This document shows positions 38,893 to 64,000 of a DNA stretch of 64,000 bases, piece after piece. Source of the DNA: an uncultured Chloroflexia bacterium (lineage in GTDB: Bacteria > Chloroflexota > Limnocylindria > Limnocylindrales > CSP1-4); assembly GCA_963725875.1 (NCBI GenBank), contig CAVRZZ010000003.1, positions 731,843-795,842 of the forward strand, given 5' to 3'. How positions within the stretch are numbered: position 1 is the stretch's first letter; the number at the start of each line of letters is the position of its first letter. Made by a program: the position numbers and the translations under genes. The notes under the pieces are model-generated. The model saw nothing but the letters and a program-made list of their open reading frames with translations. It did not search any database and was not told the origin of the DNA.

Positions 38893-39021
38893 ATGCCCGG
38901 TCCCCGCCCACGGTGACCGCCAGCGGGAGGCTCAGGCGCGCGGCCCACACGCCGGCAGCCGGGACCGCGCCGAGCCACTGGGGAGACCGACCCACCTCGG
39001 CCCTTCTGGGGAGGCGCAGTC

Positions 39022-39577
39022 ATGGGTCACATCAGCAGGACGATCCACGTCGAGGCGACGCCGGAGCAGGTGTTCGATCTCTGCACGAACCCCGAGAGGT
39101 TCCAGGAGTGGATGGTGCCGGCGAGCGAAGTGAAGGACATCACGGGCACGCCCGGCACCGTCGGCCTCGGCTGGACCACCGGCTCGACGTTCGCCGGGCG
39201 CAAGATGGAGAACCACATGAGCGTCACCGCGGTCGAGCGGCCGCGGCCTTTCGAGGTGAAGGGCACCGGCGCCTTTGCCGCGACGTTGCGCGGGCGCTTC
39301 GAGCCGGCGGCGGGCGGCACGGAGGTCACCATCGAGAACGAACACGAGATGCCGCTCGGCTTCATCGGTGACGCCGCGAACACGCTCTTCGTCGAGAAGT
39401 CGTTCGCGGTGGGCCCGACCGCGCACGCAGGTCCGCGAGGTGACGCTCGCCGTGCTGGGCCGGATGCTGACCCGCGCCACCGCCTCGGGAACAGAGCCGC
39501 CGGCGGCGGCGAAGGCAGCGAGGACGTCGACCTGGCGGGCGGTTGGCGTCCGCGGCAATCAGGAGCAGCGCAGGTAG
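39022..39577 (+). CDS. SRPBCC-superfamily (Aha1/polyketide-cyclase-like) protein; 3' end possibly frameshifted
   Basis: MGHISRTIHVEATPEQVFDLCTNPERFQEWM… The C-terminus may continue in the frame of ORF 39275..39577 (…VREVTLAVLGRMLTRA…). The opposite strand (39558 down to ~39440) carries a 40-aa fragment of the small LuxR-like family. Confidence 0.55.
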
Positions 39578-39794
39578 CCGTCTCTCATCGAGGGCGGCTC
39601 ACGCTGGGCTCACCCGGCTGCGCGTGATGAGCGCCAAGACCACCGCCGTGACGGCGAGGATCGCGCCGATCTGGTCCGGCGCGAGGTTGAGCCCGAACGC
39701 ACGACCAGGGCGATCAACGCATGGGCGAGGGCGAGCACCATGACCGGTTCGCGACCCCAGATCGTGCCGGGCTGGGTGTCCATGGCTCCTCCGG

Positions 39795-40269: not shown

Positions 40270-40842
40270 ATGGACATGACGGCAGCGACCCGCGAAGCCG
40301 AGCCCGCAGCGGAGCAGATCCGCTCCTTGCCCGACGTCGAGTCAGCGCTCCGCGGTGATCTCCAGGCATTCGACCGCCTCGTTCTGGTCCACCTTCCCAG
40401 GACCTATCGGATCGCGCTGGCGATCCTCGGGTCGGAGGCCGACGCTGGCGATGCCGTCCAAGAGGCATGGCTCGCAGCCTGGCGGCAGCTTCCGACCCTA
40501 CGCGACCCCGCACGGTTTGACGGGTGGCTCGATCAGATCCTTGTGAACGCCTGTCGCATGAGCATTCGCAGGCGAAGCCGCGTGCGCGAGATCCGGATGC
40601 CAGACGGCTTCGATGCCGAGGCTCCGCAGGCAGCGCTCAACCAGGTCGCGGAGCGCGACGCGCTCGATCGCGCCTTTGGCCGGCTGACCGTCGAACAGCG
40701 GACCATTCTGGTGCTCCATCACCTCGAGCGGCGGCCGCTGTCGGCGATCGCGGCCGCGCTCGTGATCCCCGTTGGTACGGCGAAGTCCAGGTTGCACGCC
40801 GCTCGAGCGGCGCTGGAGCGCGTCTTGGAGACCGAGCGATGA
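40270..40842 (+). CDS. ECF sigma factor
   Basis: Region 2 ([19 protein letters not shown]…[20 protein letters not shown]) and region 4 ([40 protein letters not shown]). Confidence 0.85.
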
Positions 40843-42356
40843 ACGAGCCTTCGCGGCTGTCTGACAGGGAGATCACCGACATGCTCCGCCGGCGATCGGC
40901 GCGGCCTGCGCCGGACGGGCTGGCGTCGGCAGTCCTGGAGTCCTTGGCCTCGGAGCGCGCGCGTCACTCCGTTCGGACCGCGGGCCGGCCCGCGAAGCGT
41001 CCGCTGGTGCTCCTCGCGGCCGCCGCCCTGCTGCTCGTCGGCGGCGCGATGGCGGTGGGCTCGGGCCTGGTGCGGCTGCCGTCGGTGGTGCCGCCGGTGC
41101 CGGTGCCTTCGCTGGCCGCCGTTGTCACGGATCCCACGGCCGTCCCAACGGCGATCTCCCCGTCGCCGTCCGCCGCCCCGACCTCGTCCGCCGCCCCGAT
41201 CTCGTCCGCCGTCCCGGCGAGGGCGCCCTCGTGGATCGCCACCGGAAGCATGGTCACCCCGCGCGAGGGACACACGGCCACGCTGCTGCCAGATGGCAAG
41301 GTGCTCGTGGCCGGCGGCCTCAACAGGACGAGCGGTAGGCCCAATGGCTCCACCCTGGATGGCGCCATCCTGGCCTCCGCCGAGCTGTACGACCCGCGCA
41401 GCGGGACCTGGAGTGCGACCGGGACCATGGGCACGGCACGTGAGAATCACACCGCGACCCTGCTGCCCGATGGCAAGGTGCTCGTGGTCGGCGGCTTCAC
41501 CGTGACGAGCGGCAACCCCAATGGCACGACGCTGACCTCCGCCCAGCTGTACGACCCGGCGACCGGGACCTGGAGTGCGACCGGGAGCATGAGCACGGCC
41601 CGTGAGAGCCACAGCGCGACGCTGCTGCCCGATGGCAGGGTGCTCGTCGTCGGCGGCTACACCGTGACGGTGAGCGTCGACGGCGGCTCCACCGTGATGA
41701 CATCCCTGGCCTCGGCGGAACTGTACGACCCGGCCAGCGGGAGGTGGACCGCCACCGGCAAGCTGGTCTACGAAGGGGGAACGGCCACGCTCCTGCCCGA
41801 CGGCAAGGTGCTCGTGGCGGGCGGCAACTGGAGCGGCGGATCGTTCGGAGGCGGTGGGTATTCCCCAGCCACCGCCGAGCTGTACGACCCGGGCAGCGGG
41901 ACCTGGACCGCCACCGGGAACATGGCCGCGGGGCGCTACAGCTCCACGGCCACGCTCCTGCCCGGGCGCAAGGTGCTGGTCGCATGCGGCTGCGACCATG
42001 CCGGCCGTGCCTCCGAGCTGTACGACCCGACAACCGGGTCGTGGACCGCCACCGGGACGATGGTCGCGGATCACTGGAGAGATACCGCCACGATGCTGCC
42101 CGATGGCAAGGTGACGGCCACGTTGTTGGCAGATGGGAAGGTGCTCGTCGCGGGTGGCGGGACGCCGACGCTGCCTGCCGCCGAGCTGTACGACCCGGGC
42201 ACCGGGAGCTGGGCTGCCACTGCCAAGATGCTCGCGGTGCGGGTGGACCAGACAGCCACGCTGCTGCCAGATGGGAAGGTGCTCGTGGCGGGCGGCGAAG
42301 GCCCCAGCGGCACGCTGGCCTCCGCCGAGCTGTACGACCCGGGCACCGGACAGTGA
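40839..42356 (+). CDS. anti-sigma factor with one TM helix and an extracellular Kelch-repeat beta-propeller
   Basis: ATG overlaps the sigma stop (ATGA). TM segment [19 protein letters not shown]. At least 8 Kelch-like repeats (…[39 protein letters not shown]…). Confidence 0.75.
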
Positions 42357-45056: not shown

Positions 45057-45375
45057 CTCAGGCAGACGCTGTCGGAGCGCTGTAGGGTTGATCGATGGCC
45101 TAGAATGGCGTTCGCGCTCAGGCAGACGCTGTCCTTGAGCGTGGAACTGAGCGGGAGTAACTCAGCTGGCAGAGTGTCTGCTTCCCAAGCCTGAGCGCCT
45201 CAGCGCTGTGGGCTCCCGTGTGGCGGTACCACCACATCGGCTCAGTTATCCGCTGTAGCTCTCGGGCCCTGCAGGTCGCAGGCGGGGCGCCAACCGGAAC
45301 CTAACAGCCGAGTGGCCCGGCAGCAAGCCCCGACGTGTACACCGGCGTGTAGCGAGCGGCCGTGCCACCCCGATC
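45057..45375 (+). repeat. copy A of a ~330-bp structured repeat element
   Basis: Shares over 85% identity by eye with copies at 52342 and 59075. Contains an internal 17-nt direct repeat ctcaggcagacgctgtc and a tRNA-D-arm-like segment gggagtaactcagctggcagagt. Confidence 0.7.
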
Positions 45376-45486
45376 CTCACGGCAACGCCTGCCCCGGCGG
45401 CAACCTTTGGCTTGAGGTCGAACTCCAGGCGCGGTGCCTGGGCGCTCATGTGGCGTATACGGTATGGCGTGATGTATACTCCACCC

Positions 45487-48915: not shown

Positions 48916-50109
48916 CTACTGGCGGAGAAAGATCGCGGTCTGGCGCCACCATTCGTACAGTTGCTCCCAGTCGTTGTCGCCGCGCCGCGCCCTGGCCAGG
49001 ATTCGCTCGTCGACATAGGTCCAGACGAGCCACGCGGCGCCCTTCTCCTGGTAGCAGAGCAGGCGTCCGGCGTGAACGTTCCGGACCTCCCAGGGGCCGA
49101 CGGCATGCGGCACGGACTCGCACGAGCCGGCCGATGCACCGGTGCGGGCGACGGCCTCGGCGAGTGCTCCCGCGAGGGAGGCTGACGTCGGGAACTGGTC
49201 GACCCAGACCTCGTCCGCGGCCGCGCTGAGCGGGAGCCGGCAATGCAGGCTCACGGAACCGCCGGCCGATCCATCGGCGGCTGTCGCCGGTAGGCAGTCC
49301 TCCCTGACCGCCGCGGGCAGCCGGGCGCGGAGCGTCGCCTCGTCGGCCGTGAGCAGCGAACTTGGCGAGGCCCCGGTGCCTCCGGAGGGCCGCGGCGTCG
49401 CGCCCGACGGAGCACCCGACGCCGGGGAAGCCGCCGGTCCGCTGGGACCGCCGCCGGGCACTGCGACGAGGAGGGCGGCTCCTCCGATCAGCGCGACCGG
49501 GAGCCCGATGGCGGCCGCCAACACGATGACTCTGCGGGGCCACGATCGCCCGCCGGTTCCGGGTGCGGCGGCACGGGCCGCGGCGGTCGAAGGCAGGACC
49601 CCGTAGACGAGGACGGGCTCGGCGATCCCCTTGAGCCGGCGCCGGCCACGCGGCACGAACCGGACCGCCAGAAACGTACGCGTCAGGCCGCGGACGGTGT
49701 CGCTCACCAGCAGCTCGCCGGGACCCGCCAGCGCGCAGATCCGTGCCGCGATGTTGACCGCACTGCCAACGAATCCCTCGGCGGTGTCCGCGGTCTCGCC
49801 CGCGTGCACTCCGACGCCAACCCGGATCGCAGCTGCCCGGGGTTCATCACCGGCCGCCGCGGCGGCCTCGAGGATCGCGAGGCCACCCTGGACAGCGGCG
49901 CTGGCCGACGAGAACACCACGTAGAAGCTGTCGCCCTCTGTCCGGATCTCGGCACCGCCGAACTGCGCGATGACTTCCCGGACGAGCACGCGGTAGCGCG
50001 CGAGGAGCTCCGCGGCCGCCTGGTCGCCGTGGGATTCGACGAACCGCGTGTAGTCGCGCAGGTCCGCGAACAGGAAGCCCCGGGTCTGACTCGCGGGTAG
50101 CTCGCTCAT
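48916..50109 (-). CDS. class III adenylate/guanylate cyclase with a C-terminal TM segment and extracytoplasmic domain
   Basis: CHD motifs (FLFADLRDYTRF, …EIRTEGDSFYVVF…, GVHAGE…VGSAVNIAARI). ATG overlaps the upstream gene's stop. Confidence 0.8.
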   Translation of the reverse strand: MSELPASQTRGFLFADLRDYTRFVESHGDQAAAELLARYRVLVREVIAQFGGAEIRTEGDSFYVVFSSASAAVQGGLAILEAAAAAGDEPRAAAIRVGVGVHAGETADTAEGFVGSAVNIAARICALAGPGELLVSDTVRGLTRTFLAVRFVPRGRRRLKGIAEPVLVYGVLPSTAAARAAAPGTGGRSWPRRVIVLAAAIGLPVALIGGAALLVAVPGGGPSGPAASPASGAPSGATPRPSGGTGASPSSLLTADEATLRARLPAAVREDCLPATAADGSAGGSVSLHCRLPLSAAADEVWVDQFPTSASLAGALAEAVARTGASAGSCESVPHAVGPWEVRNVHAGRLLCYQEKGAAWLVWTYVDERILARARRGDNDWEQLYEWWRQTAIFLRQ

Positions 50110-50876
50110 CCAGTGAGATCCTGGTTCGATGGCGCCAGGTGGAGGCCCCTCGCCATCGCGTCAGGATGCATGCGCACGGGGCACTTGACCAGAGGTGAAG
50201 GCGCGCCGCACGCGGTAGCCGTCTGCCCACCCGTCGAACCCGGCGTGTCAGCCCTCGGTGCCCTGCTCCGCCTCCCACTCGTCCGGGTCAGCGCGTACTC
50301 GACGTCCCCGTGCTCCTCGCCCTCGACGCGCTCGGGCCAGGGCTGGTGGAAGACCCGCACGCGGCGAAGCCCGGCCTTCTCCATGACGCGCCAGGACGCC
50401 TGGTTCACGACCATTGTCGTGGCATAGACGCGGCTGGCCCCCAGCTCCTCGAAGGCCTTCCGGATCAGCGCCCGGCTCCCCTCGGTCGCGAAGCCTCTCC
50501 CCCAGGCATCCGCGACCAGGCGATAGCCGAGCTCAGGCTCGTCGTCCGGATCGCCCTTCTGCGGGCGGAGGTGGAACCAGCCGCGGAACGCCTCGGTGCC
50601 CTTCTCGATCGCCGCCCAGAAGCCGTAGCCGTCGCCCCTGGCGTAGTAGGCCATCCAGGCAGGCAGGTACTCATCGCGAATCTCGTCGCGTGGCGTCGGG
50701 CGGCCGCCGTTGATGTAGCGCATCACCGCGGGATCGGAGTCCAGCGCGGTCGCAAGGTCGACGTCAGCGGGCGTGAACCGACGCAGGACCAGGCGCTCGG
50801 TCTCGAGATAGACGTGCACCGCGGGGATGGTACCGCCGTCAGGCCGAGGGATCCGCCGATGCTCGAGCGCACGCAA
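50106..50876 (-). CDS. GNAT-family N-acetyltransferase (RimL-like) with a C-terminal extension
   Basis: …LVLRRFTPADVDLATALDSDP…GYRLVADAWGRGFATEGSRALIRKAFEELGASRVYATT… The tail after about aa 200 is low-complexity. Confidence 0.7.
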   Translation of the reverse strand: MRALEHRRIPRPDGGTIPAVHVYLETERLVLRRFTPADVDLATALDSDPAVMRYINGGRPTPRDEIRDEYLPAWMAYYARGDGYGFWAAIEKGTEAFRGWFHLRPQKGDPDDEPELGYRLVADAWGRGFATEGSRALIRKAFEELGASRVYATTMVVNQASWRVMEKAGLRRVRVFHQPWPERVEGEEHGDVEYALTRTSGRRSRAPRADTPGSTGGQTATACGAPSPLVKCPVRMHPDAMARGLHLAPSNQDLTG

Positions 50877-52341: not shown

Positions 52342-52680
52342 CTCAGGCAGACGCTGTCGGAGCGCTGTAGGGTTCATCGATGGTCTAGAATGGCCTTCGC
52401 GCTCAGGCAGACGCTGTCCCCGAGCGTGACTCCCGAGCGGGAGTAACTCAGCTGGCAGAGTGTCTGCTTCCCAAGCCTGAGCGGCTCAGCGCTGTGGGCT
52501 CCCGTGTGGCGGTTCCGCCAAATCGCCTCAGTTATCCGCTGTAGCTTCCGGCCTCTGGAGGTCGCGGACGGGGCGCCAACCGGAACCTAGCAGCCGATCG
52601 GCCCGGCAGAAATCCCTGATGTGTACACCGGTGTGCAGCGAGCGGCCGTGCCCGATCTATTGCCCTTGTCGAGCAGTCTC
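52342..52680 (+). repeat. copy B of the ~330-bp structured repeat element
   Basis: See copy A. Shares an additional ~35-nt 3' extension with copy C. Confidence 0.7.
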
Positions 52681-55495: not shown

Positions 55496-55679
55496 TGCCC
55501 GCCTGAGGGCGGCGACCCGCTTCGGACCAGCGGGAACCGGGACGATGGACCTTCCGGGGGAGCCCGCGCTCGAGCATCGCAGTGAGGCAGCGAGCCCATG
55601 ACGCCGGGTGCCTGCACGGGCTGTGGCGCAGACCTCGAGCATTCCGCTTTGTCCCTTTTCGCAACGCCGCCCCGCCCGT

Positions 55680-58600
55680 ATGCTCCCGTCCATGACGGCG
55701 TGCCCGGCCTGCGGCAGCGAGAACCCCGACGGGGCGCGGTTCTGCAACGGCTGCGGTGCGAGGCTCGCTTCGACGGCCGAGCCGGCGGCCCGCGAGGAGC
55801 GCAAGGTCGTCACGGTCCTCTTCGCCGACCTGGCCGGGTTCACCGCCCGCGCCGAGACGCTGGACCCCGAGGACGTGCGGGCGTTCCTCCTCCCGTACTA
55901 CGACGTCCTCACCTCCGAGATCGAGCGCCACGGGGGCCGGGTCGACCGCTTCCTGGGCGACGGGGTGATGGCCCTCTTCGGGGCGCCGACGGCCCACGAG
56001 GACGATCCCGAGCGCTCCGTGCGGGCGGCTCTCCGCATCCTCGAGCGGATCCCGGGCCTGGGCCTCGACCTCCACGTGCGCCTCGGCGTCAACACCGGGC
56101 CCGTCCTCTTCGCCGCCGGCAGCGGGGGCGAGCGCGACGATGCGGTGACCGGGGACGCCGTGAACACCGCGGCCCGGCTCCAGGCCCTGGCGCCGACGGA
56201 CGGGGTCGTCGTCGGCGAGGCGACGTACCGAGCCACCTCGCACCTCTTCGCCTACGAGGCGCTCGCGCCCGCGCTCGTGAAGGGCAAGGCCGAGCCGGTA
56301 CCGGCCTTCCGGCCCACGGCGCCGCTCGCGAGGCCACCGGGTGCGCTCCGCGCCGAGACGACGCCGTTCGTGGGCCGCGACCTCGAGCTCGCGCTCCTGG
56401 GCGGCCTCTTCGAGCGGGCCCGGTCCACCCCCTCGGTCGAGCTGGTCACGATCGTGGCCGAGCCGGGCCTGGGCAAGTCCCGCCTGGTCCGGGAGCTCGC
56501 CCGCCACGTCGATGCCCTCCCCGACCTCGTCACCTGGCGGGTCGGTCGCTGCCTTCCGTACGGGGACGGGATCAGCCTGTGGGCCCTGGGCGAGATCGTG
56601 AAGAGCCATGCCGGCATCCTCGACACCGACGACCAGGCGACGCTGGCGGCGAAGCTCGAGGCCGTCCTCGTGGAACCCGACCCCTCGACGCGCACCTGGA
56701 TGAAGGACCGCCTCGCGCCGCTCGTCGGCCTCGAGATCACGGCCCAGCCGCCCGTCCAGGAGGAGGCCTTCACCGCCTGGCGTCGCTTCCTCGAGCAGGT
56801 TGCGCAGGGAGGTCCGACGGTCCTCGTCGTCGAGGACCTCCACTGGGCCGACGACACCCTGGTCGCCTTCCTCGCCCACCTCGGCGACCGCGCCGCCGGC
56901 CTCCCGCTCCTCCTCGTGACCACCGCCCGCCCCGAGCTCGAGGAGCGCCACCCCGCCTGGCTGTCGCGGACGAGGCGCTCGACCGTCCTGTCCCTCGCCG
57001 CCCTCCCCGACCGGGCGATGACGACCCTCGTGACGGCGTCGATCCCCGGCGCCTCGCCCGAGCTGCTCGCGTCGGTCCTCGAGCGCGCGGCCGGCTCCCC
57101 CCTCTACGCCGAGCAGCTCGCCGCGATGCTTCGCGACCGGGTCCTCCCGATCGCCGGCGGAGCGCTGGACGAGGATGCCATCCCGGCCTCGATCGCGGCG
57201 CTCCTGGCCGCCCGGATCGACGCCCTGCCGCCCGCGACGAAGGGCGTCCTCCTCGACGCGGCGGTCGTGGGCAGGACGTTCTGGTCGGGGGCGGTCGCCG
57301 CCCTCGCGGGACGCGGGCGGACCGAGGTCGAGGCCCACCTGGCAGAGCTCGTGCGGCGGGAGCTCGTCCGCCCCGTCCTCCCGTCCACGATGGTCGGCGA
57401 GGCCGAGTACACGTTCTGGCACGCCCTCCTCCGCGACGTCGCCTACGGGGAGCTGACGCGGCAGGCCCGCCTGGCGAAGCACCGGGCCACGGCGGCCTGG
57501 ATCACCGCGAGGGCGGGAGCCGCCCGCGGCGAGGACGCCGAGATCGTCGTCGCCCACCTCGACCGGGCCCTCGAGCTGGCGGCCACGACGGGAACGACGG
57601 CGATCGTGACGGAGCTCAGGGAGAGCCTGGTGCGGTACGGCCGACTCGCCGCCGAGCGGGCGACGGCGACGTTCGCGGTCGAGAAGGCGGACGCGATGTA
57701 CGCTGCGGCCATCGCCGCCGCACGGGCCATCGTGGAGTCCGACGACGCCGAGGAGCACCTGGTTGCGCTGGCGGAGCTGCTGGCCGGCGACGGCGCCCTG
57801 CTCGCCCGGATCGGCAGGTCCGACGCGGCCGTCGCGGCCTGGGGCGATGCTCTCGCGGCGATGCCGCCCGGTCGCCCGGTGTGGCGGGCGCGGGTCCACA
57901 TGATGTGGGGCGACGTCGAGATGGACCGGCGCGCATTCGAGGCCGCCGACGAGCAATTCGCGGCGGGCGCCGCGCTCCTGGGCAACGAGCCGCCCGCGGA
58001 TCCGTCCGAGGCATCGGCATGGTGGGCAGCGTGGCTCGACCTGAAGAGCCGGGCCGTCGAGCGGGCCTACTGGCGCGGCGACCCGGTCCTGATGCAGGCC
58101 GTCATCGAGGAGCTCCAGGAGCCGCTGGTGACACATGGGACGGCAGCCCAGCAGGCCCAGCACTACCACCTTCGAGCGGACCAGCTGCTCCTCCGGGACC
58201 GGTTTGCGCCGTCGGACGAGACGCTGGCCCTCATGGAGCGCGCCCTTGAGGCGAACCGGCGAGGTGGCGACCGCCGGGCGCTTGCCTACGACCGCTTCTG
58301 GCTCGGCTTCACCTGCCTCTGGCGCCGCGAGGAGGCTCGGTCAGAGACCGAGCTGCGGGCTGCCGTTGTCGAGGCAGGCCAGATCGGCGACGCCATGGTC
58401 GAGTTGCGCTCGCTCGCGTATCTGGGGCTTCTCCTGCGCCGGCAGCGCCGAACGGCGGAAGCGGCTCCCGTCGCGGAGCGCACGACGCTGCTGGCCGGTC
58501 GGCTCGGCCAGGCCGTGTATCGCGCCTACGGGCTGTCGACGCTGGCCTGGCTGGCACTGGAGAAGGGCGATCTAGAAGCGGCCCGCCGCGACGCGGCCGT

Positions 58601-58883
58601 CGCGGACGACCTGTTCACCCACGACGGTGCGGTGTTCCCCTTTCGCTGGCTCTCCCTGTGGCCGCTCCTGGCGTGCGATGTCGAGGACGGGCGGATGCGG
58701 GAGGCCGCCAGCCGATTGCCGCCGCTCCTCGACGCGACGGCCCAGCCCCTGCCGGATCAGCTGGCGCACGAGGTTCGAGCCGTGCTGGCAGCGGCCGCGC
58801 GTGACGCAGTGGGCGACGGCAGCGATCTGCGGCGGGCCTTGGATCGCGCCCTTCGAGCCGCTCGGCGCCATGGGTACCTGTAG
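55680..58883 (+). CDS. STAND-type signalling ATPase: double zinc-ribbon, class III nucleotidyl cyclase domain, AAA/NB-ARC ATPase and TPR-like helical repeats (LuxR-less LAL-type architecture)
   Basis: CPACGSENPDGARFCNGCGA zinc ribbon. Cyclase motifs (VTVLFADLAGFT, …FLGDGVMALFGAP…). P-loop (EPGLGKSRL). A long TPR/helical C-terminal region. Confidence 0.8.
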   Translation: MLPSMTACPACGSENPDGARFCNGCGARLASTAEPAAREERKVVTVLFADLAGFTARAETLDPEDVRAFLLPYYDVLTSEIERHGGRVDRFLGDGVMALFGAPTAHEDDPERSVRAALRILERIPGLGLDLHVRLGVNTGPVLFAAGSGGERDDAVTGDAVNTAARLQALAPTDGVVVGEATYRATSHLFAYEALAPALVKGKAEPVPAFRPTAPLARPPGALRAETTPFVGRDLELALLGGLFERARSTPSVELVTIVAEPGLGKSRLVRELARHVDALPDLVTWRVGRCLPYGDGISLWALGEIVKSHAGILDTDDQATLAAKLEAVLVEPDPSTRTWMKDRLAPLVGLEITAQPPVQEEAFTAWRRFLEQVAQGGPTVLVVEDLHWADDTLVAFLAHLGDRAAGLPLLLVTTARPELEERHPAWLSRTRRSTVLSLAALPDRAMTTLVTASIPGASPELLASVLERAAGSPLYAEQLAAMLRDRVLPIAGGALDEDAIPASIAALLAARIDALPPATKGVLLDAAVVGRTFWSGAVAALAGRGRTEVEAHLAELVRRELVRPVLPSTMVGEAEYTFWHALLRDVAYGELTRQARLAKHRATAAWITARAGAARGEDAEIVVAHLDRALELAATTGTTAIVTELRESLVRYGRLAAERATATFAVEKADAMYAAAIAAARAIVESDDAEEHLVALAELLAGDGALLARIGRSDAAVAAWGDALAAMPPGRPVWRARVHMMWGDVEMDRRAFEAADEQFAAGAALLGNEPPADPSEASAWWAAWLDLKSRAVERAYWRGDPVLMQAVIEELQEPLVTHGTAAQQAQHYHLRADQLLLRDRFAPSDETLALMERALEANRRGGDRRALAYDRFWLGFTCLWRREEARSETELRAAVVEAGQIGDAMVELRSLAYLGLLLRRQRRTAEAAPVAERTTLLAGRLGQAVYRAYGLSTLAWLALEKGDLEAARRDAAVADDLFTHDGAVFPFRWLSLWPLLACDVEDGRMREAASRLPPLLDATAQPLPDQLAHEVRAVLAAAARDAVGDGSDLRRALDRALRAARRHGYL

Positions 58884-59074
58884 CGATCGGAGACCGGGTG
58901 GCCCCAGACGGAATCGTCGGCGGCCCATTCCGCGCCTCCCCGGTTCCCGTCGGTCGGGTCGCGCTCCCGGCCGGCTGGACTCCAGCAGCGGGCGCCTCGC
59001 CGGTGCAGACAAGGTCCCGATGCAGTCATGCGATCACGCTGTCCCCGAAGCGGCGGATCCGGGAGATCGTCGTC

Positions 59075-59415
59075 AAGCAGACGCTGTCGGAGCGCTGTAG
59101 GGTTGATCGATGGCCTAGAATGGCCTTCGCGCTCAGGCAGACGCTGTCCTCGAGCGTGACTCCCGAGCGGGAGTAACTCAGCTGGCAGAGTGTCTGCTTC
59201 CCAAGCCTGAGCGGCTCAGCGCTGTGGGCTCCCGTGTGGCGGTTCCGCCAAATCGCCTCAGTTATCCGCTGTAGCTTCCGGCCTCTGGAGGTCGCGGACG
59301 GGGCGCCAACCGGAACCTAGCAGCCGATCGGCCCGGCAGAAATCCCTGATGTGTACACCGGTGTGCAGCGTGCGGCCGTGTCCCGAGCTTCTCGCTCTCG
59401 TCGAGCGGTCGCCCT
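59075..59415 (+). repeat. copy C of the ~330-bp structured repeat element
   Basis: See copy A. Its first internal direct repeat is caagcagacgctgtc (a-for-g variant). Confidence 0.7.
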
Positions 59416-60462: not shown

Positions 60463-60769
60463 GGAGCCACGGTCTGTGAAGGCCGGGCGGCGGCGGTCAG
60501 ATTCGTCCGCACGCGGGCTGTGAGTATCGGGGCCAGCGGCCCGTTGGGACGAGCAGCACTATTCCGGCGTGCGGGTGACCGGCCGGCAGAGATCGCCGGC
60601 AGCAGCCGCGTTGCCGTCGAGTTGCCGATTAGCCAAGACTTCCAGCTACCGTCGGCCAGAACCGACCCCGGGTCTACCGTCGTCCTGGGGCTATCCGGTG
60701 TCGACCGGGTTGCCCACCACTCGGCCGCGATCTAGACTAGCGTCGCGCGTGCTGTAGGGGGGAGGCAGT

Positions 60770-60939
60770 ATGGATGTCGGCGTGACGGCCATCCGGCCCG
60801 AAAGCCAACCTGTCCTCCGCGACTCGAAGGTGGTCCCCCTCGATCTCGTGACGCCCGAATCGGCCCGCAACGCTGGTGGCGCGTCTGGCCCAGCCGGGAT
60901 TCCCGACAGAGAGCCCCACTCTTCCATGAAGTCGGGCTG
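60770..60939 (+). CDS. 56-codon leader ORF with a strong RBS; possibly the true 5' end of the downstream giant gene, separated by a frameshift
   Basis: gggggaggcagt-ATG… encodes MDVGVTAIRPESQPVLRDSKVVPLDLVTPESARNAGGASGPAGIPDREPHSSMKSG*. Its TGA lies 4 nt before the GTG of the large ORF. Confidence 0.25.
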
Positions 60940-60942
60940 AGG

Positions 60943-63900
60943 GTGAGCGCCCCATACTTCGTTCCCGCGGCCGACCTGCTGCCGTACTGGCCCCATGACC
61001 TGCTCGCCCCGAGCGACGTGCCTATGCTCGGACGGCTCAGCCAGTTCGCCGGCGTCACCGAGTTCGAGCTCGTCGAGTACGAGAGCGAGCTCGCGGTCGT
61101 CGGCACGCTGGCGCTCTGGGACGAGCTGACCCTCGATCTGCCGCTGGTCGATGGCCTCCAACTCGTCTTCGGCCAGCCCGGGCCGAACCTCAGCGCCCTG
61201 CCCTTCGAGCTCGACTTCGGGCCGCCGTCGGGCGGGCCCACCGACAGTGCCGCCGAGATCGCGCTCGATCTGTTCTTGAAGGGCCGCCAGGGTCCGTACG
61301 AGCTCGTCCTGCCGACCGTCGACATCGGCCTCCGCTTCAACCCCGACGACGTCAGGCCGATGCGGCCAAAGGACGCCGCCGACCTCGCAAAGGGCTTCGA
61401 GCCCGATCCCACGAGGACCGCCACGCAGCTCAACTTCCGGGCTGCGATCGCCATAAACACCGATACCGGCATTCGGATGGAAGCGCCGGGCGACCTGGAC
61501 CTGCTTTACAGCCAGATTGGCTCGACGGGGATCGTGTTCTCCGGCCAGGACATCGTCCTGCGCCTGTCGGACGCCCAGCCACAGCCCGAGGGCATCGACC
61601 CCGCGGCCTTCGACCTCGATGACGACTGGAAGGGCGTCTACCTCGGGCACGTCCAGGTCTTCAATCTCAACACCCTGGTCGAGTGGCTGCCCGAACGCCT
61701 CGACCTCGAGAAGTGGTTCATAGGCCGGGGCGGCGTGACCGGCAAGGCGACCGCCATCCTCGACCTCCAGCCGGACATGTCCGACCAGGACTTCGCAGTC
61801 CGGGCGTTCCGCCTCGCACTCCGCCAGAACGCGCTGCTCGAGTCCCTCATCCAGCTCGCTGTCAAGCTGCCGTACTTCGACGACAAGGTCGTCTACCTCG
61901 ACCTCGCCATCACGAACGAGCCCAGCCTCGACTTCCCGGAGTCGATGGGCTTCATGGGCGCCATCGCCGGCGTCCAGCCGCCGGGCGACCTCGAGGACGA
62001 GCCGCCGAGGCAGGACGAGCTGATCGCGCTGCCGGCGGACCCATTCCTGCGGGTCGGTGTCACGAAGCTCGGCGTGCGGGCCGAGCCCGATCCCGGCCGG
62101 GCCGGCTCCGACTACCCGGCCGACACGCGTTTCTGGGACCTGCTGATCGACGGCCGGGTGGAGATCGGCCCCGCGGCGCAGGTCGCGAACACGTTGTTCG
62201 GCGGGGAGTTCACGGAGCTTGTCCTCCAGGTCGCACCGGATTTCGACTACGCGCTGCCGAGCGGCCTGTGGCTCGCCCTCAACGAGGCGGCCCGGACCAG
62301 GCTTGCCGCGTTCCCGCTCCAGATCTCGCGCTTCGGGCTGGGCGAGCAGGGTCCCGAGAAGTGGGTGGGCCTCGACGCCTCGGTCGACCTCGGCAGGAGC
62401 ATCGGAGCGGCCGCGTCGGTCCAGGGCCTGCGCATCTTCTACGGCGGCCCGCCCGGGGTCCACCTCACGTTCGACGGCATCGAGCTCAAGGTCTTCCGGG
62501 AAGGCTTCGCCTTCGAGGGCTTCGTCTCGATGGTGAGCGGCGTCGACCCCGAGGGTATCGCCGATCCGGCCGACCGGACCTTCCGGGGCGATGTGAAGCT
62601 CGCGATCGCGAGCGGCGTCGGCGTCGAGCTCGAAGGCACTGTGCTGTTCGGGACGAAGGGCGGCATGCGGTTCGGCTACGTCGGGCTCGACGCCGAGTTT
62701 GGCGGCGGAATCCCGATCTTCTCCACCGTGTCCTGGTTCGGGGCGGCGTTGCTCGCCGGCGTCAACGTCACGCCGGACAAGACCCTCGCCGGCAACCATG
62801 GCGACGACTTCAACTGGTACCAGCACTGGTACGCTCCGGCGCCCGGTCCGTACTCCGTGCTCAACGCGCGCAAGTGGATCCCGAGGGAGGACGCCTGGGC
62901 GGCGGGTGCCGGCGTCACCGTCGGGTCGAGCGACGGCAAGGCCTGGAGCCTCCGAGCGCTGCTGGCCCTCGTCGCCCCGGGCCCGGTGATCATCATCGAG
63001 GGCCGCCTCCGCGTGCTGAAGACCCGCGAACCGCACAAGGGCCCGCCGCGGTCGACGACGATCCGGGGCCTCACCGTCCTCGATTTCGACCAGGGCGACT
63101 TCCTGCTGGCCCTGGAGGTCGACTACAAGCTCCCGGAATCAGGGCTGCTGCTCGACGTTCATGCGGCCGGCGAGGTGTTCTACGGCCACCGGCCGGGCGA
63201 CTGGCACCTGGCGGTCGGTTGGCCCGAGCCCATCAGCCGGCGCGTCCGGGCGAAGGCCCTGCGCCTGCTCGACTGGGACGCCTACCTCGTCATTACCGGT
63301 CGGGACCTCGAGCTTGCCGAGCGGACGTTCCCCGGCACGGCGCTCGCCGTCGGCTACCGGACCGGCATCGACAAGCGCGGCAAGTGGGGACCGGTCCGCG
63401 GCGTGCTCATCGTCTGGATCGCCGGCGACGTCGCGATGTCGTTCAGCCCGTTCTACATCCTCGCCGAGCTGTCGCTCCACGGCGAGGCGAGCGTCAAGAT
63501 CTTCGGCATCGGCTTCGAGCTCATGCTCGACGCGCTGCTCGCGCTCGAGGCGCCGGTCGGCGACGACGACGAGTACTTCGGCGGCAAGGTCAAGATCAAG
63601 GTGGGGCTGCCGTGGCCGCTGCCGGACGTCAAGAAGGACATCCCGTTCGAGTGGGGCGATGCCACCGGGATGCCGCCGCCGATCACGCCGCTCGTCGACG
63701 GCGCGTCGGTCAGCCCGGGCTACAGCGTGGTGGGGGCGCGGCTGTACGAGCGCGAGACCGGGTCCGTCGCGAGCGTGTCCATGCCGCTCGACGGCCGGGT
63801 GGCGATTACCTTCCAGCGCCCGATGCGGTCCACCTGGGCGGGAGCGCCGACGCCGGTCGACCTGGCCCATCCGGACCGCGTCGGCGACGTCTACTACCGC

Positions 63901-64000
63901 TACACGCTGCTCGCCGTCCGCGTGCGGGTCACGCCTGCCGGCGGCTCGCCCCACGACGCCACCGAGGACCTCTTCGGCCAGTGGATGCTGGGCCACGGCG
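60943..64000 (+). CDS. very large hypothetical protein (more than 1,018 aa, 3' end outside the window); not in the supplied ORF track because it has no in-window stop
   Basis: Continuous open frame with realistic composition and codon usage. Example segment: …VSAPYFVPAADLLPYWPHDLLAPSDVPMLGRLSQFAGVTEFELVEYESELAVVGTLALWDELTLDLPLVDGLQLVFGQPGPNLSALPFELDFGPPSGGPTDSAAEIALDLFLKGRQGPYELVLPTVDIGLRFNPDD… and onward. The antisense ORF 60691..63036 is a GC artefact. Confidence 0.6.
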   Translation, partial: MSAPYFVPAADLLPYWPHDLLAPSDVPMLGRLSQFAGVTEFELVEYESELAVVGTLALWDELTLDLPLVDGLQLVFGQPGPNLSALPFELDFGPPSGGPTDSAAEIALDLFLKGRQGPYELVLPTVDIGLRFNPDDVRPMRPKDAADLAKGFEPDPTRTATQLNFRAAIAINTDTGIRMEAPGDLDLLYSQIGSTGIVFSGQDIVLRLSDAQPQPEGIDPAAFDLDDDWKGVYLGHVQVFNLNTLVEWLPERLDLEKWFIGRGGVTGKATAILDLQPDMSDQDFAVRAFRLALRQNALLESLIQLAVKLPYFDDKVVYLDLAITNEPSLDFPESMGFMGAIAGVQPPGDLEDEPPRQDELIALPADPFLRVGVTKLGVRAEPDPGRAGSDYPADTRFWDLLIDGRVEIGPAAQVANTLFGGEFTELVLQVAPDFDYALPSGLWLALNEAARTRLAAFPLQISRFGLGEQGPEKWVGLDASVDLGRSIGAAASVQGLRIFYGGPPGVHLTFDGIELKVFREGFAFEGFVSMVSGVDPEGIADPADRTFRGDVKLAIASGVGVELEGTVLFGTKGGMRFGYVGLDAEFGGGIPIFSTVSWFGAALLAGVNVTPDKTLAGNHGDDFNWYQHWYAPAPGPYSVLNARKWIPREDAWAAGAGVTVGSSDGKAWSLRALLALVAPGPVIIIEGRLRVLKTREPHKGPPRSTTIRGLTVLDFDQGDFLLALEVDYKLPESGLLLDVHAAGEVFYGHRPGDWHLAVGWPEPISRRVRAKALRLLDWDAYLVITGRDLELAERTFPGTALAVGYRTGIDKRGKWGPVRGVLIVWIAGDVAMSFSPFYILAELSLHGEASVKIFGIGFELMLDALLALEAPVGDDDEYFGGKVKIKVGLPWPLPDVKKDIPFEWGDATGMPPPITPLVDGASVSPGYSVVGARLYERETGSVASVSMPLDGRVAITFQRPMRSTWAGAPTPVDLAHPDRVGDVYYRYTLLAVRVRVTPAGGSPHDATEDLFGQWMLGHG

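Follow-up and report, generated by a model that had tools for sequence, protein, structure and literature searches.

A giant gene running off the end of a 64-kb window encodes a divergent DUF6603-superfamily protein of an apparently mobile gene pair with an exchangeable third gene

Here, we present an analysis of the 3' end of a 64,000-nucleotide (nt) stretch of DNA (the window) from contig CAVRZZ010000003.1 of an uncultured Chloroflexia bacterium. A first-pass annotation, made from the letters alone, had flagged in this region a giant open reading frame (ORF) that is absent from the list of ORFs, together with a mini-ORF just upstream. We find that this frame belongs to a real gene, here called gene A, whose 5' two-thirds it covers, intact and without a frameshift; the gene starts at GTG 60943 and is under purifying selection. 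By profile homology, its product belongs to the DUF6603 superfamily, of which it is a divergent representative. In related loci, gene A is accompanied by a second giant gene, B, and by a third gene that varies between loci; in the clade of the window this third gene, C, encodes a phospholipase D (PLD). We tentatively suggest that A and B present or deliver enzymes that attack the cell envelope. The features at the locus, in window coordinates, are the following.

60943 to 64000, plus strand: 5' part of gene A (3,057 nt, 1,019 codons), encoding a predicted giant all-beta protein of the DUF6603 superfamily and continuing past the window end; assigned from the open frame, the G+C content at third codon positions (GC3, 0.93), the identity to database protein P0001, the mismatches to locus L023 and the profile search.
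60955 to 61002, plus strand: codons of the conserved N-terminal motif YFVPAADLLPYWPHDL, the anchor for the start-codon assignment, which almost every full-length orthologue has at 2-6 residues from its N-terminus.
60736 to 60942, plus strand: start-less in-frame stretch 5' of the GTG, a non-coding leader (GC3 0.58 in the frame of gene A).
60691 to 63036, minus strand: antisense shadow ORF of 781 amino acids (aa), with G+C contents at codon positions 1/2/3 (GC1/2/3) of 0.89/0.47/0.71, which mirror those of the sense frame.
60770 (ATG) to 60938-60940 (TGA), plus strand: mini-ORF of 56 codons in a different frame from gene A (GC3 0.75).
60757 to 60765, plus strand: Shine-Dalgarno-like sequence GGGGGGAGG, recognised by sequence, 4 nt before ATG 60770.

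From GTG 60943 to position 63999, the plus-strand frame contains 1,019 codons and zero stops, for which P is ~6e-9 based on base composition. Its GC1/2/3 of 0.71/0.46/0.93 is the classic coding signature of a high-GC genome (the G+C content across the window is 69-77%). Because the coding mismatches between gene A and its counterpart in L023 (95% aa identity) split 32/13/111 over codon positions 1/2/3, we conclude that the gene is under purifying selection. Thus, the giant ORF is real, and the suspicion that the antisense ORF listed in its place is an artefact is borne out: because its GC1/2/3 mirrors that of the sense frame, we attribute it to the codon bias of gene A, which was itself left off the ORF track because ORFs that run off the window end are not listed. 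No stop codon follows shortly past 64000. Database protein P0001 (1,556 aa, from an 814-kb contig), already deposited in NCBI/ENA as a hypothetical protein, is 100% identical over all 1,019 residues and has the same GTG start, and orthologues have lengths of 1,660-1,692 aa (~1,675 aa in intact relatives). P0001 aligns without gaps to the 95%-identical P0050 (1,675 aa) up to residue 1528 and then continues into an unrelated Arg/Ser/Cys-rich tail. This divergence, at ~65.5 kb in window coordinates and beyond the window end, is probably due to a frameshift, which would be either an error of sequencing or a genuine loss of the C-terminal end.

The start codon is assigned based on orthologues. Full-length orthologues (~40) start 2-6 residues before the motif YFVPxxDLLPYWPHDL, including those of Microbacterium sp. 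cf046 (84% identical) and Agromyces (76%), and a P..WP..L.P remnant of this motif is visible in distant relatives. In the frame of gene A, the nearest upstream stop is TAG 60733-60735, and GTG 60943 is the sole ATG, GTG or TTG between this stop and the motif. In 9/9 orthologous loci, the frame is closed by a stop 12-46 codons upstream of the motif, and the upstream DNA is unrelated. The first-pass annotation had proposed that the protein begins at ATG 60770 and is frameshifted, or requires +1 recoding, or else that the mini-ORF is a translated upstream ORF (uORF) coupled to the GTG. The arrangement invites such proposals: a strong Shine-Dalgarno sequence precedes ATG 60770, GTG 60943 itself lacks a good one, and the mini-ORF and its Shine-Dalgarno sequence are as claimed, except that its TGA is separated from the GTG by only GG (2 nt), not by 4 nt. 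In addition, the closest relative, L023, keeps both the ATG and TGA and the final 40 nt, and its two indels (-2 and -1, in total -3) leave the frame open. In contrast, none of the ~40 orthologues carries the MDVGVTAIRPESQ peptide or any N-terminal extension, and none fuses a peptide from the upstream frame to the main frame. Because the orthologues lack the upstream peptide and have the in-frame stops described above, frameshifting and recoding are refuted.

The evidence against a coupled uORF is of a different kind. L023 is the sole other orthologous locus with a related leader and with the mini-ORF, and there the two indels shift the middle 28 of its ~56 codons into another frame, while the Shine-Dalgarno sequence is weakened to GGGGCGAGG. 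The GC3 of the mini-ORF resembles that of non-coding DNA in the window, its exact peptide is absent from a collection of 15 billion proteins, and an open frame of 56 codons has a P of ~0.35 at the local composition, i.e. chance could by itself account for the mini-ORF. The plus strand of the window has 134 occurrences of GGAGG, of which 20 are followed by ATG or GTG at 3-9 nt. Scans of the leader region (58.8-61.2 kb) with Rfam and for promoters and terminators returned nothing relevant. Overall, we consider both a protein start at ATG 60770 and translation of the mini-ORF as a uORF with coupling to the GTG very unlikely. Most likely, the mini-ORF is untranslated leader; we leave a slight chance for a lineage-specific coupling uORF, in which translation, and not the peptide, would matter.

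The claim that the first ~1,000 aa hold no recognisable domain is confirmed by Pfam and NCBIfam, which detect none in the 1,019-aa window fragment. For Pfam, this extends to E<=1, the DUF6603 model PF20248 included, to which the window protein scores below the gathering score of 27 bits. PF20248 was also not found in the full-length orthologues P0002, P0030 and P0045, and it matches orthologue P0007 at 28.5 bits (residues 467-702). A word-indexed search recovered only ~50 clusters and one remote relative. Using a profile of the clade in an exhaustive scan (HMMER), we found 1,238 representative clusters at E<=1e-3 (608 at <=1e-30), mostly proteins of 1,500-3,300 aa that share a region corresponding to query residues ~444-1019, and among which are proteins carrying PF20248. 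In a sample of 20 distant relatives, PF20248 is present in 11 and the lectin-type domain 3keto-disac_hyd in nine; other domains in sampled relatives are Beta_helix, Tectonin, TSP_C and the GH59 lectin domain, and in many relatives it is the C-terminal half of A that bears lectin-type domains. A homologue from Mycetohabitans, which is named "DUF6603 domain-containing protein" by NCBI, matches A_L001 by BLAST with an E value of 2e-69. At the level of sequence profiles, these matches place A in the DUF6603 superfamily as a divergent member. This family has no assigned function, and membership explains nothing mechanistically. A profile search of A against PDB sequences returned noise only (E>0.2), and A has no match in PADLOC or PHROGs.

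A first AlphaFold2 model of A, from 28 close sequences, was poor, with a predicted local distance difference test (pLDDT) score of 51 and meaningless Foldseek matches. With 60 diverse sequences, the pLDDT score rose to 79.7, with a predicted template modelling (pTM) score of 0.52, and in this model the first ~1,000 residues consist almost wholly of long antiparallel beta-strands. Foldseek searches of PDB and BFVD returned generic matches to giant beta-sheet and barrel proteins only (SlpA, LptD, FimD and ApoB; template modelling (TM) scores <=0.17). As far as the predicted model allows, no solved or viral structure resembles the fold of A. The conserved positions are overwhelmingly Gly, Pro, Trp and aromatic residues, with a few Asp and Tyr and two or three Cys, a pattern that, as read from the alignment, fits a scaffold rather than an enzyme.

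In every orthologous locus, gene A is followed by B and C in a tight A-B-C operon, in which A and B are separated by -1 to 1 nt (1 nt in 3/4 loci) and B and C by 12-40 nt. B (~1,220 aa in the window clade) falls in no Pfam family and ends in C-terminal FN3 domains. C (~965 aa) has as its C-terminal half a complete eukaryote-type PLD with two HKD motifs (HHQKxxVV...GGIDL..GRWD and HAKxxVVDD..IGSSN) that matches PLDc and PLDc_2. Its closest solved relatives are a 1,099-aa bacterial PLD (7v53, which we take to be Pseudomonas aeruginosa PldA), plant PLD-alpha1 and human PLD1/2; its N-terminal region of ~450 aa is unrelated. Upstream of gene A, the window contains genes for an AAA_14/DUF4143 ATPase, an NmrA-like protein and a cyclase-AAA_16 protein, small ORFs and the third copy of an intergenic repeat (copy C). 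The upstream neighbours differ in every orthologous locus, and none of those in the window is conserved beside an orthologue. Therefore, the link to an upstream LuxR-type regulator, a membrane protein and repeat copy C that was drawn in the first-pass annotation is not supported; the conserved partners lie downstream.

A and B are found across Actinomycetota, on Mycetohabitans plasmids, on a Haloferax plasmid and in soil metagenomes. B is homologous across loci by BLAST and ranges in size from ~1,100 to 1,900 aa; in distant relatives, the gene order is usually B-x-A. Among 80 metagenomic loci, an A match was found in 79, and B is adjacent in 59 of these 79, nearly all of those with enough flanking sequence. 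While A and B stay adjacent, the third gene swaps between PLD, a peptidoglycan amidase, an M15 peptidase, a beta-helix protein and a protease. PLD is present in 22 of the metagenomic loci, and other products of the third slot match Amidase_2 (4), Peptidase_M15_3, Beta_helix (2), Pro-kumamolisin, TIG and OmpA. An N-terminal adaptor common to the products of the third gene was considered and rejected: with a hidden Markov model of C, the PLD domain is all that is found in common. In Haloferax mediterranei, plasmid pHME322 (L020, 9862-22975) encodes an A-like protein of 1,858 aa and a B-like protein of 1,370 aa, after which comes a protein of 1,142 aa that carries a Baseplate_J domain at residues 955-1048. 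This domain is the only link to phage-tail-like machinery that we found.

The distribution is patchy and the pair appears to be mobile. Only nine loci of the close family were found in 185,579 species genomes; their flanks are unrelated, and A-B are carried on plasmids or integrative elements. On Mycetohabitans plasmids, a B-PLD-A triad lies amid toxin-antitoxin systems, insertion sequence (IS) elements and an integrase, and the L018 copy is likewise flanked by mobile and toxin-antitoxin genes. In a few relatives with the order A-B, there is a hint of an extracytoplasmic site: A has a Sec signal peptide directly before the N-terminal motif in L079 (9866-14650) and L100 (9794-14836), and B has two or three N-terminal transmembrane helices in L100 (14833-18234) and L090 (2979-6377). 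As a separate observation, five orthologues that are 76-84% identical (L003, L004, L005, L008 and L009; 67-72% G+C) lie on contigs titled as metagenome-assembled genomes of Chloroflexia, Vicinamibacterales, Gammaproteobacteria, a beta proteobacterium and Limnocylindrales; either the contigs are actinobacterial and were misnamed or mis-binned, or the gene crossed between phyla very recently.

Based on the invariant giant pair, the lectin and FN3 domains, the swappable envelope-attacking enzymes and the horizontal mobility, we favour the reading that A-B is a scaffold by which effectors that degrade the envelope are presented or delivered outside the cytoplasm, as an antagonism or toxin module. 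We hold it tentatively, at somewhat short of an even chance. Together, A and B would build a large structural complex with an extracytoplasmic site of action; this complex would be released or surface-exposed, bind a target surface, for which the lectin and FN3 domains are suited, and present or deliver the co-encoded envelope-degrading enzyme. The module would act like a polymorphic effector system. A bolder proposal, possible but doubtful, is that A and B are the scaffold of an unrecognised apparatus for effector presentation or toxin delivery, with a new giant beta-sheet fold and an exchangeable effector slot. Such an apparatus would be unrelated to type VI secretion systems (T6SS), contractile injection systems, Tc and Rhs, and would have spread horizontally across Actinomycetota, Pseudomonadota and haloarchaea. 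The first-pass annotation had guessed at an undescribed system such as a large surface, toxin or injection-type protein. Once separated from the upstream neighbours, this part of the idea stands: the genes present point to a function at the surface or of the toxin type, and the literature searched appears to hold no description of the A-B-effector architecture.

Several observations weigh against a delivery scaffold outside the cytoplasm. Because most of the third genes other than PLD have no Pfam match, the envelope-degrading pattern depends on PLD and a handful of other enzymes. Signal peptides and transmembrane helices are missing from the majority of A, B and third-gene products, and in A, B and C of the window clade, a Kyte-Doolittle scan found no window >2.0 and, by this measure, neither feature; these calls come from a hydropathy heuristic rather than a dedicated predictor. 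B and C of this particular genome lie outside the window and are deduced from the 95%-identical relative, and P0001 may be truncated after residue 1528. Because the model of A has no structural analogue, A is not directly tied to binding or delivery. No immunity gene was identified. Finally, in the literature searched, we found no mention of DUF6603, PF20248 or IPR046538 and no description for Mycetohabitans pBRH02.

Three other explanations account for parts of these data. An intracellular anti-phage abortive-infection system, in which A and B sense infection and the third gene is a swappable suicide effector (here a PLD acting on the cell's own membrane), would explain the variable slot and the general lack of signal peptides. 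It would also suit the flanks, which look mobile or resemble defence islands: the Mycetohabitans and L018 copies lie between toxin-antitoxin systems, IS elements and integrases, and genes for DUF4145 and AAA_21+DUF4435 proteins adjoin the Agromyces copy. Moreover, C gives weak matches to PLDs of the DrmC type. However, A and B have no PADLOC match and no NTPase, nuclease or other sensor-type domain, and the PLD is of the two-HKD phospholipase type rather than the single-HKD nuclease type. Peptidoglycan hydrolases act only outside the membrane, and the amidases and M15 peptidases of the third slot could not reach their substrate from the cytoplasm; the lectin-type domains on A and, in some lineages, the signal peptide on A and the transmembrane helices on B also argue against an intracellular site. 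We therefore regard this explanation as unlikely.

A domesticated or degenerate phage-tail or tailocin module for the baseplate or receptor binding, with A and B as wedge- or fibre-like proteins and the third gene as a tail-associated lysin, seems to us quite unlikely. Domains of the FN3, lectin, beta-helix, amidase and M15 types are characteristic of the fibres and lysins of phage tails; B has a weak match to phrog_31, the central tail fibre J (E 0.011), and the third gene after the A-like and B-like genes on pHME322 carries Baseplate_J. In contrast, tblastn against 50,697 phage genomes gave no match and a scan of IMG/VR no relative, A matches neither a PHROG nor a fold in BFVD, and sheath, tube, tape-measure and capsid genes lie near none of >90 loci. 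At least as unlikely is a housekeeping complex that remodels the producer's own membrane or wall, e.g. in lipid or peptidoglycan turnover. The third-slot enzymes do target the envelope, no immunity gene was found, and the only, very weak, Foldseek likenesses are to giant beta-sheet proteins that handle lipids or lipopolysaccharide (LptD and ApoB); however, TM scores <=0.17 provide no evidence of a common fold, swapping of effector types is not expected for such a complex, and the patchy, horizontal-looking distribution described above also counts against it.

The observation in the sequence is in itself ordinary, i.e. a real, already deposited hypothetical gene that was dropped by the ORF lister and involves no recoding. 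Its interest lies in what it leads to: more than 1,000 clusters of proteins of 1,500-3,300 aa without an assigned function or a structural analogue, tied to a conserved gene pair and to a slot in which enzymes that degrade membrane and wall are swapped. If A and B do carry enzymes to targets, microbial antagonism would have a new route, one found in archaea as well as in Gram-positive and Gram-negative bacteria. A tractable entry point would be the A-B-PLD operon of Microbacterium and Agromyces, which at 10.5 kb is compact.

Elsewhere in the window, an intergenic repeat of ~330 nt is present in three copies, at 45057-45390 (A), 52343-52680 (B) and 59073-59410 (C). Over a 300-nt unit, copies B and C are 98% identical and copies A and B 67%. 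The 5' half is tRNA-like (GGGAGTAACTCAGCTGGCAGAGTGTCTGCTTCCCAAGC), with an Rfam tRNA score of 19.5 bits that is below threshold; ARAGORN detected no tRNA anywhere in the window, and the predicted RNA fold is not unusually stable (z = -1.1). This element could be a tRNA-derived repeat, a small RNA or an att-like remnant. A c-di-GMP-II-GAG riboswitch aptamer (RF03169; 44.7 bits vs. a gathering score of 40) lies at 38917-39000 on the plus strand, at the start of the plus-strand ORF region 38917-39627. Within the ORF at 40521-42356, a coding unit of ~160 nt is repeated six or seven times in tandem (41230-42350, plus strand); judging from the encoded motif, the repeats look like beta-propeller blades of the Kelch or RCC1 type. 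Two proteins with adenylate/guanylate-cyclase domains are encoded upstream of gene A, at 48916-50160 (minus strand) and 55602-58883 (plus strand); the latter is a protein of 1,093 aa that combines a zinc ribbon, the cyclase domain and AAA_16. With the cyclase proteins and the c-di-GMP riboswitch, the region is rich in nucleotide signalling genes.

Among known systems, the T6SS bears a likeness in that C shares its two HKD motifs with the Tle5/PldA-type effectors of this system as well as with eukaryote-type PLDs; lipases and peptidoglycan hydrolases as alternatives also mirror T6SS effector repertoires. However, T6SS or vgrG genes are absent near A-B-C, no Tli-type immunity gene was seen beside C, and the hosts include Gram-positive bacteria and an archaeon. 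With DISARM, the likeness is to one component: C matches DrmC weakly over one HKD motif, which was the best hit in PADLOC-DB v2 (E 2.5e-4; no matches for A or B), and in NCBIfam it scores 17 bits, far below the cut-off of 133. Moreover, C is of the two-HKD phospholipase type, and drmA, drmB and methylase genes are absent. With the baseplate wedge of phages and contractile injection systems (Baseplate J/gp47, gp6-gp7), the likeness is the Baseplate_J domain of the Haloferax third gene, whereas A and B are unlike baseplate proteins by sequence or fold and have no phage homologues. Except for this Baseplate_J gene, no sheath, tube, baseplate or tape-measure genes were found at L001, L002, L012-L022 and the 80 metagenomic loci. 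Sec/Tat-exported proteins and membrane proteins provide no model for A, B and C of the window clade, in which the hydropathy scan detected neither kind of feature.

The Tc (ABC) and polymorphic toxins resemble A-B-C in having three large co-transcribed proteins without signal peptides and a variable toxic enzyme module, and polymorphic toxin systems (Rhs etc.) have as their distinguishing mark a swappable effector, as in A-B loci. In Tc and Rhs, the effector is a C-terminal tip, whereas in A-B loci it is a separate gene; Pfam detected no VRP1/TcA, SpvB, RHS/YD or PAAR domains in A, B and C, and among the top 50 Foldseek PDB hits listed for A, none is a Tc/Rhs cocoon. The closest comparison is to the DUF6603 proteins themselves. 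These are larger (2,000-3,300 aa vs. ~1,670 aa in the window clade), they bear lectin-type C-terminal domains that the window clade lacks, and their loci have the order B-C-A rather than A-B-C. What they have in common with the window clade is the homologous core at residues ~444-1019 and, as in Mycetohabitans, the adjacency to B and a PLD gene. Altogether, the gene is known as a deposited hypothetical and its superfamily is catalogued as a DUF, and A is a divergent member of this known, functionally uncharacterised kind.

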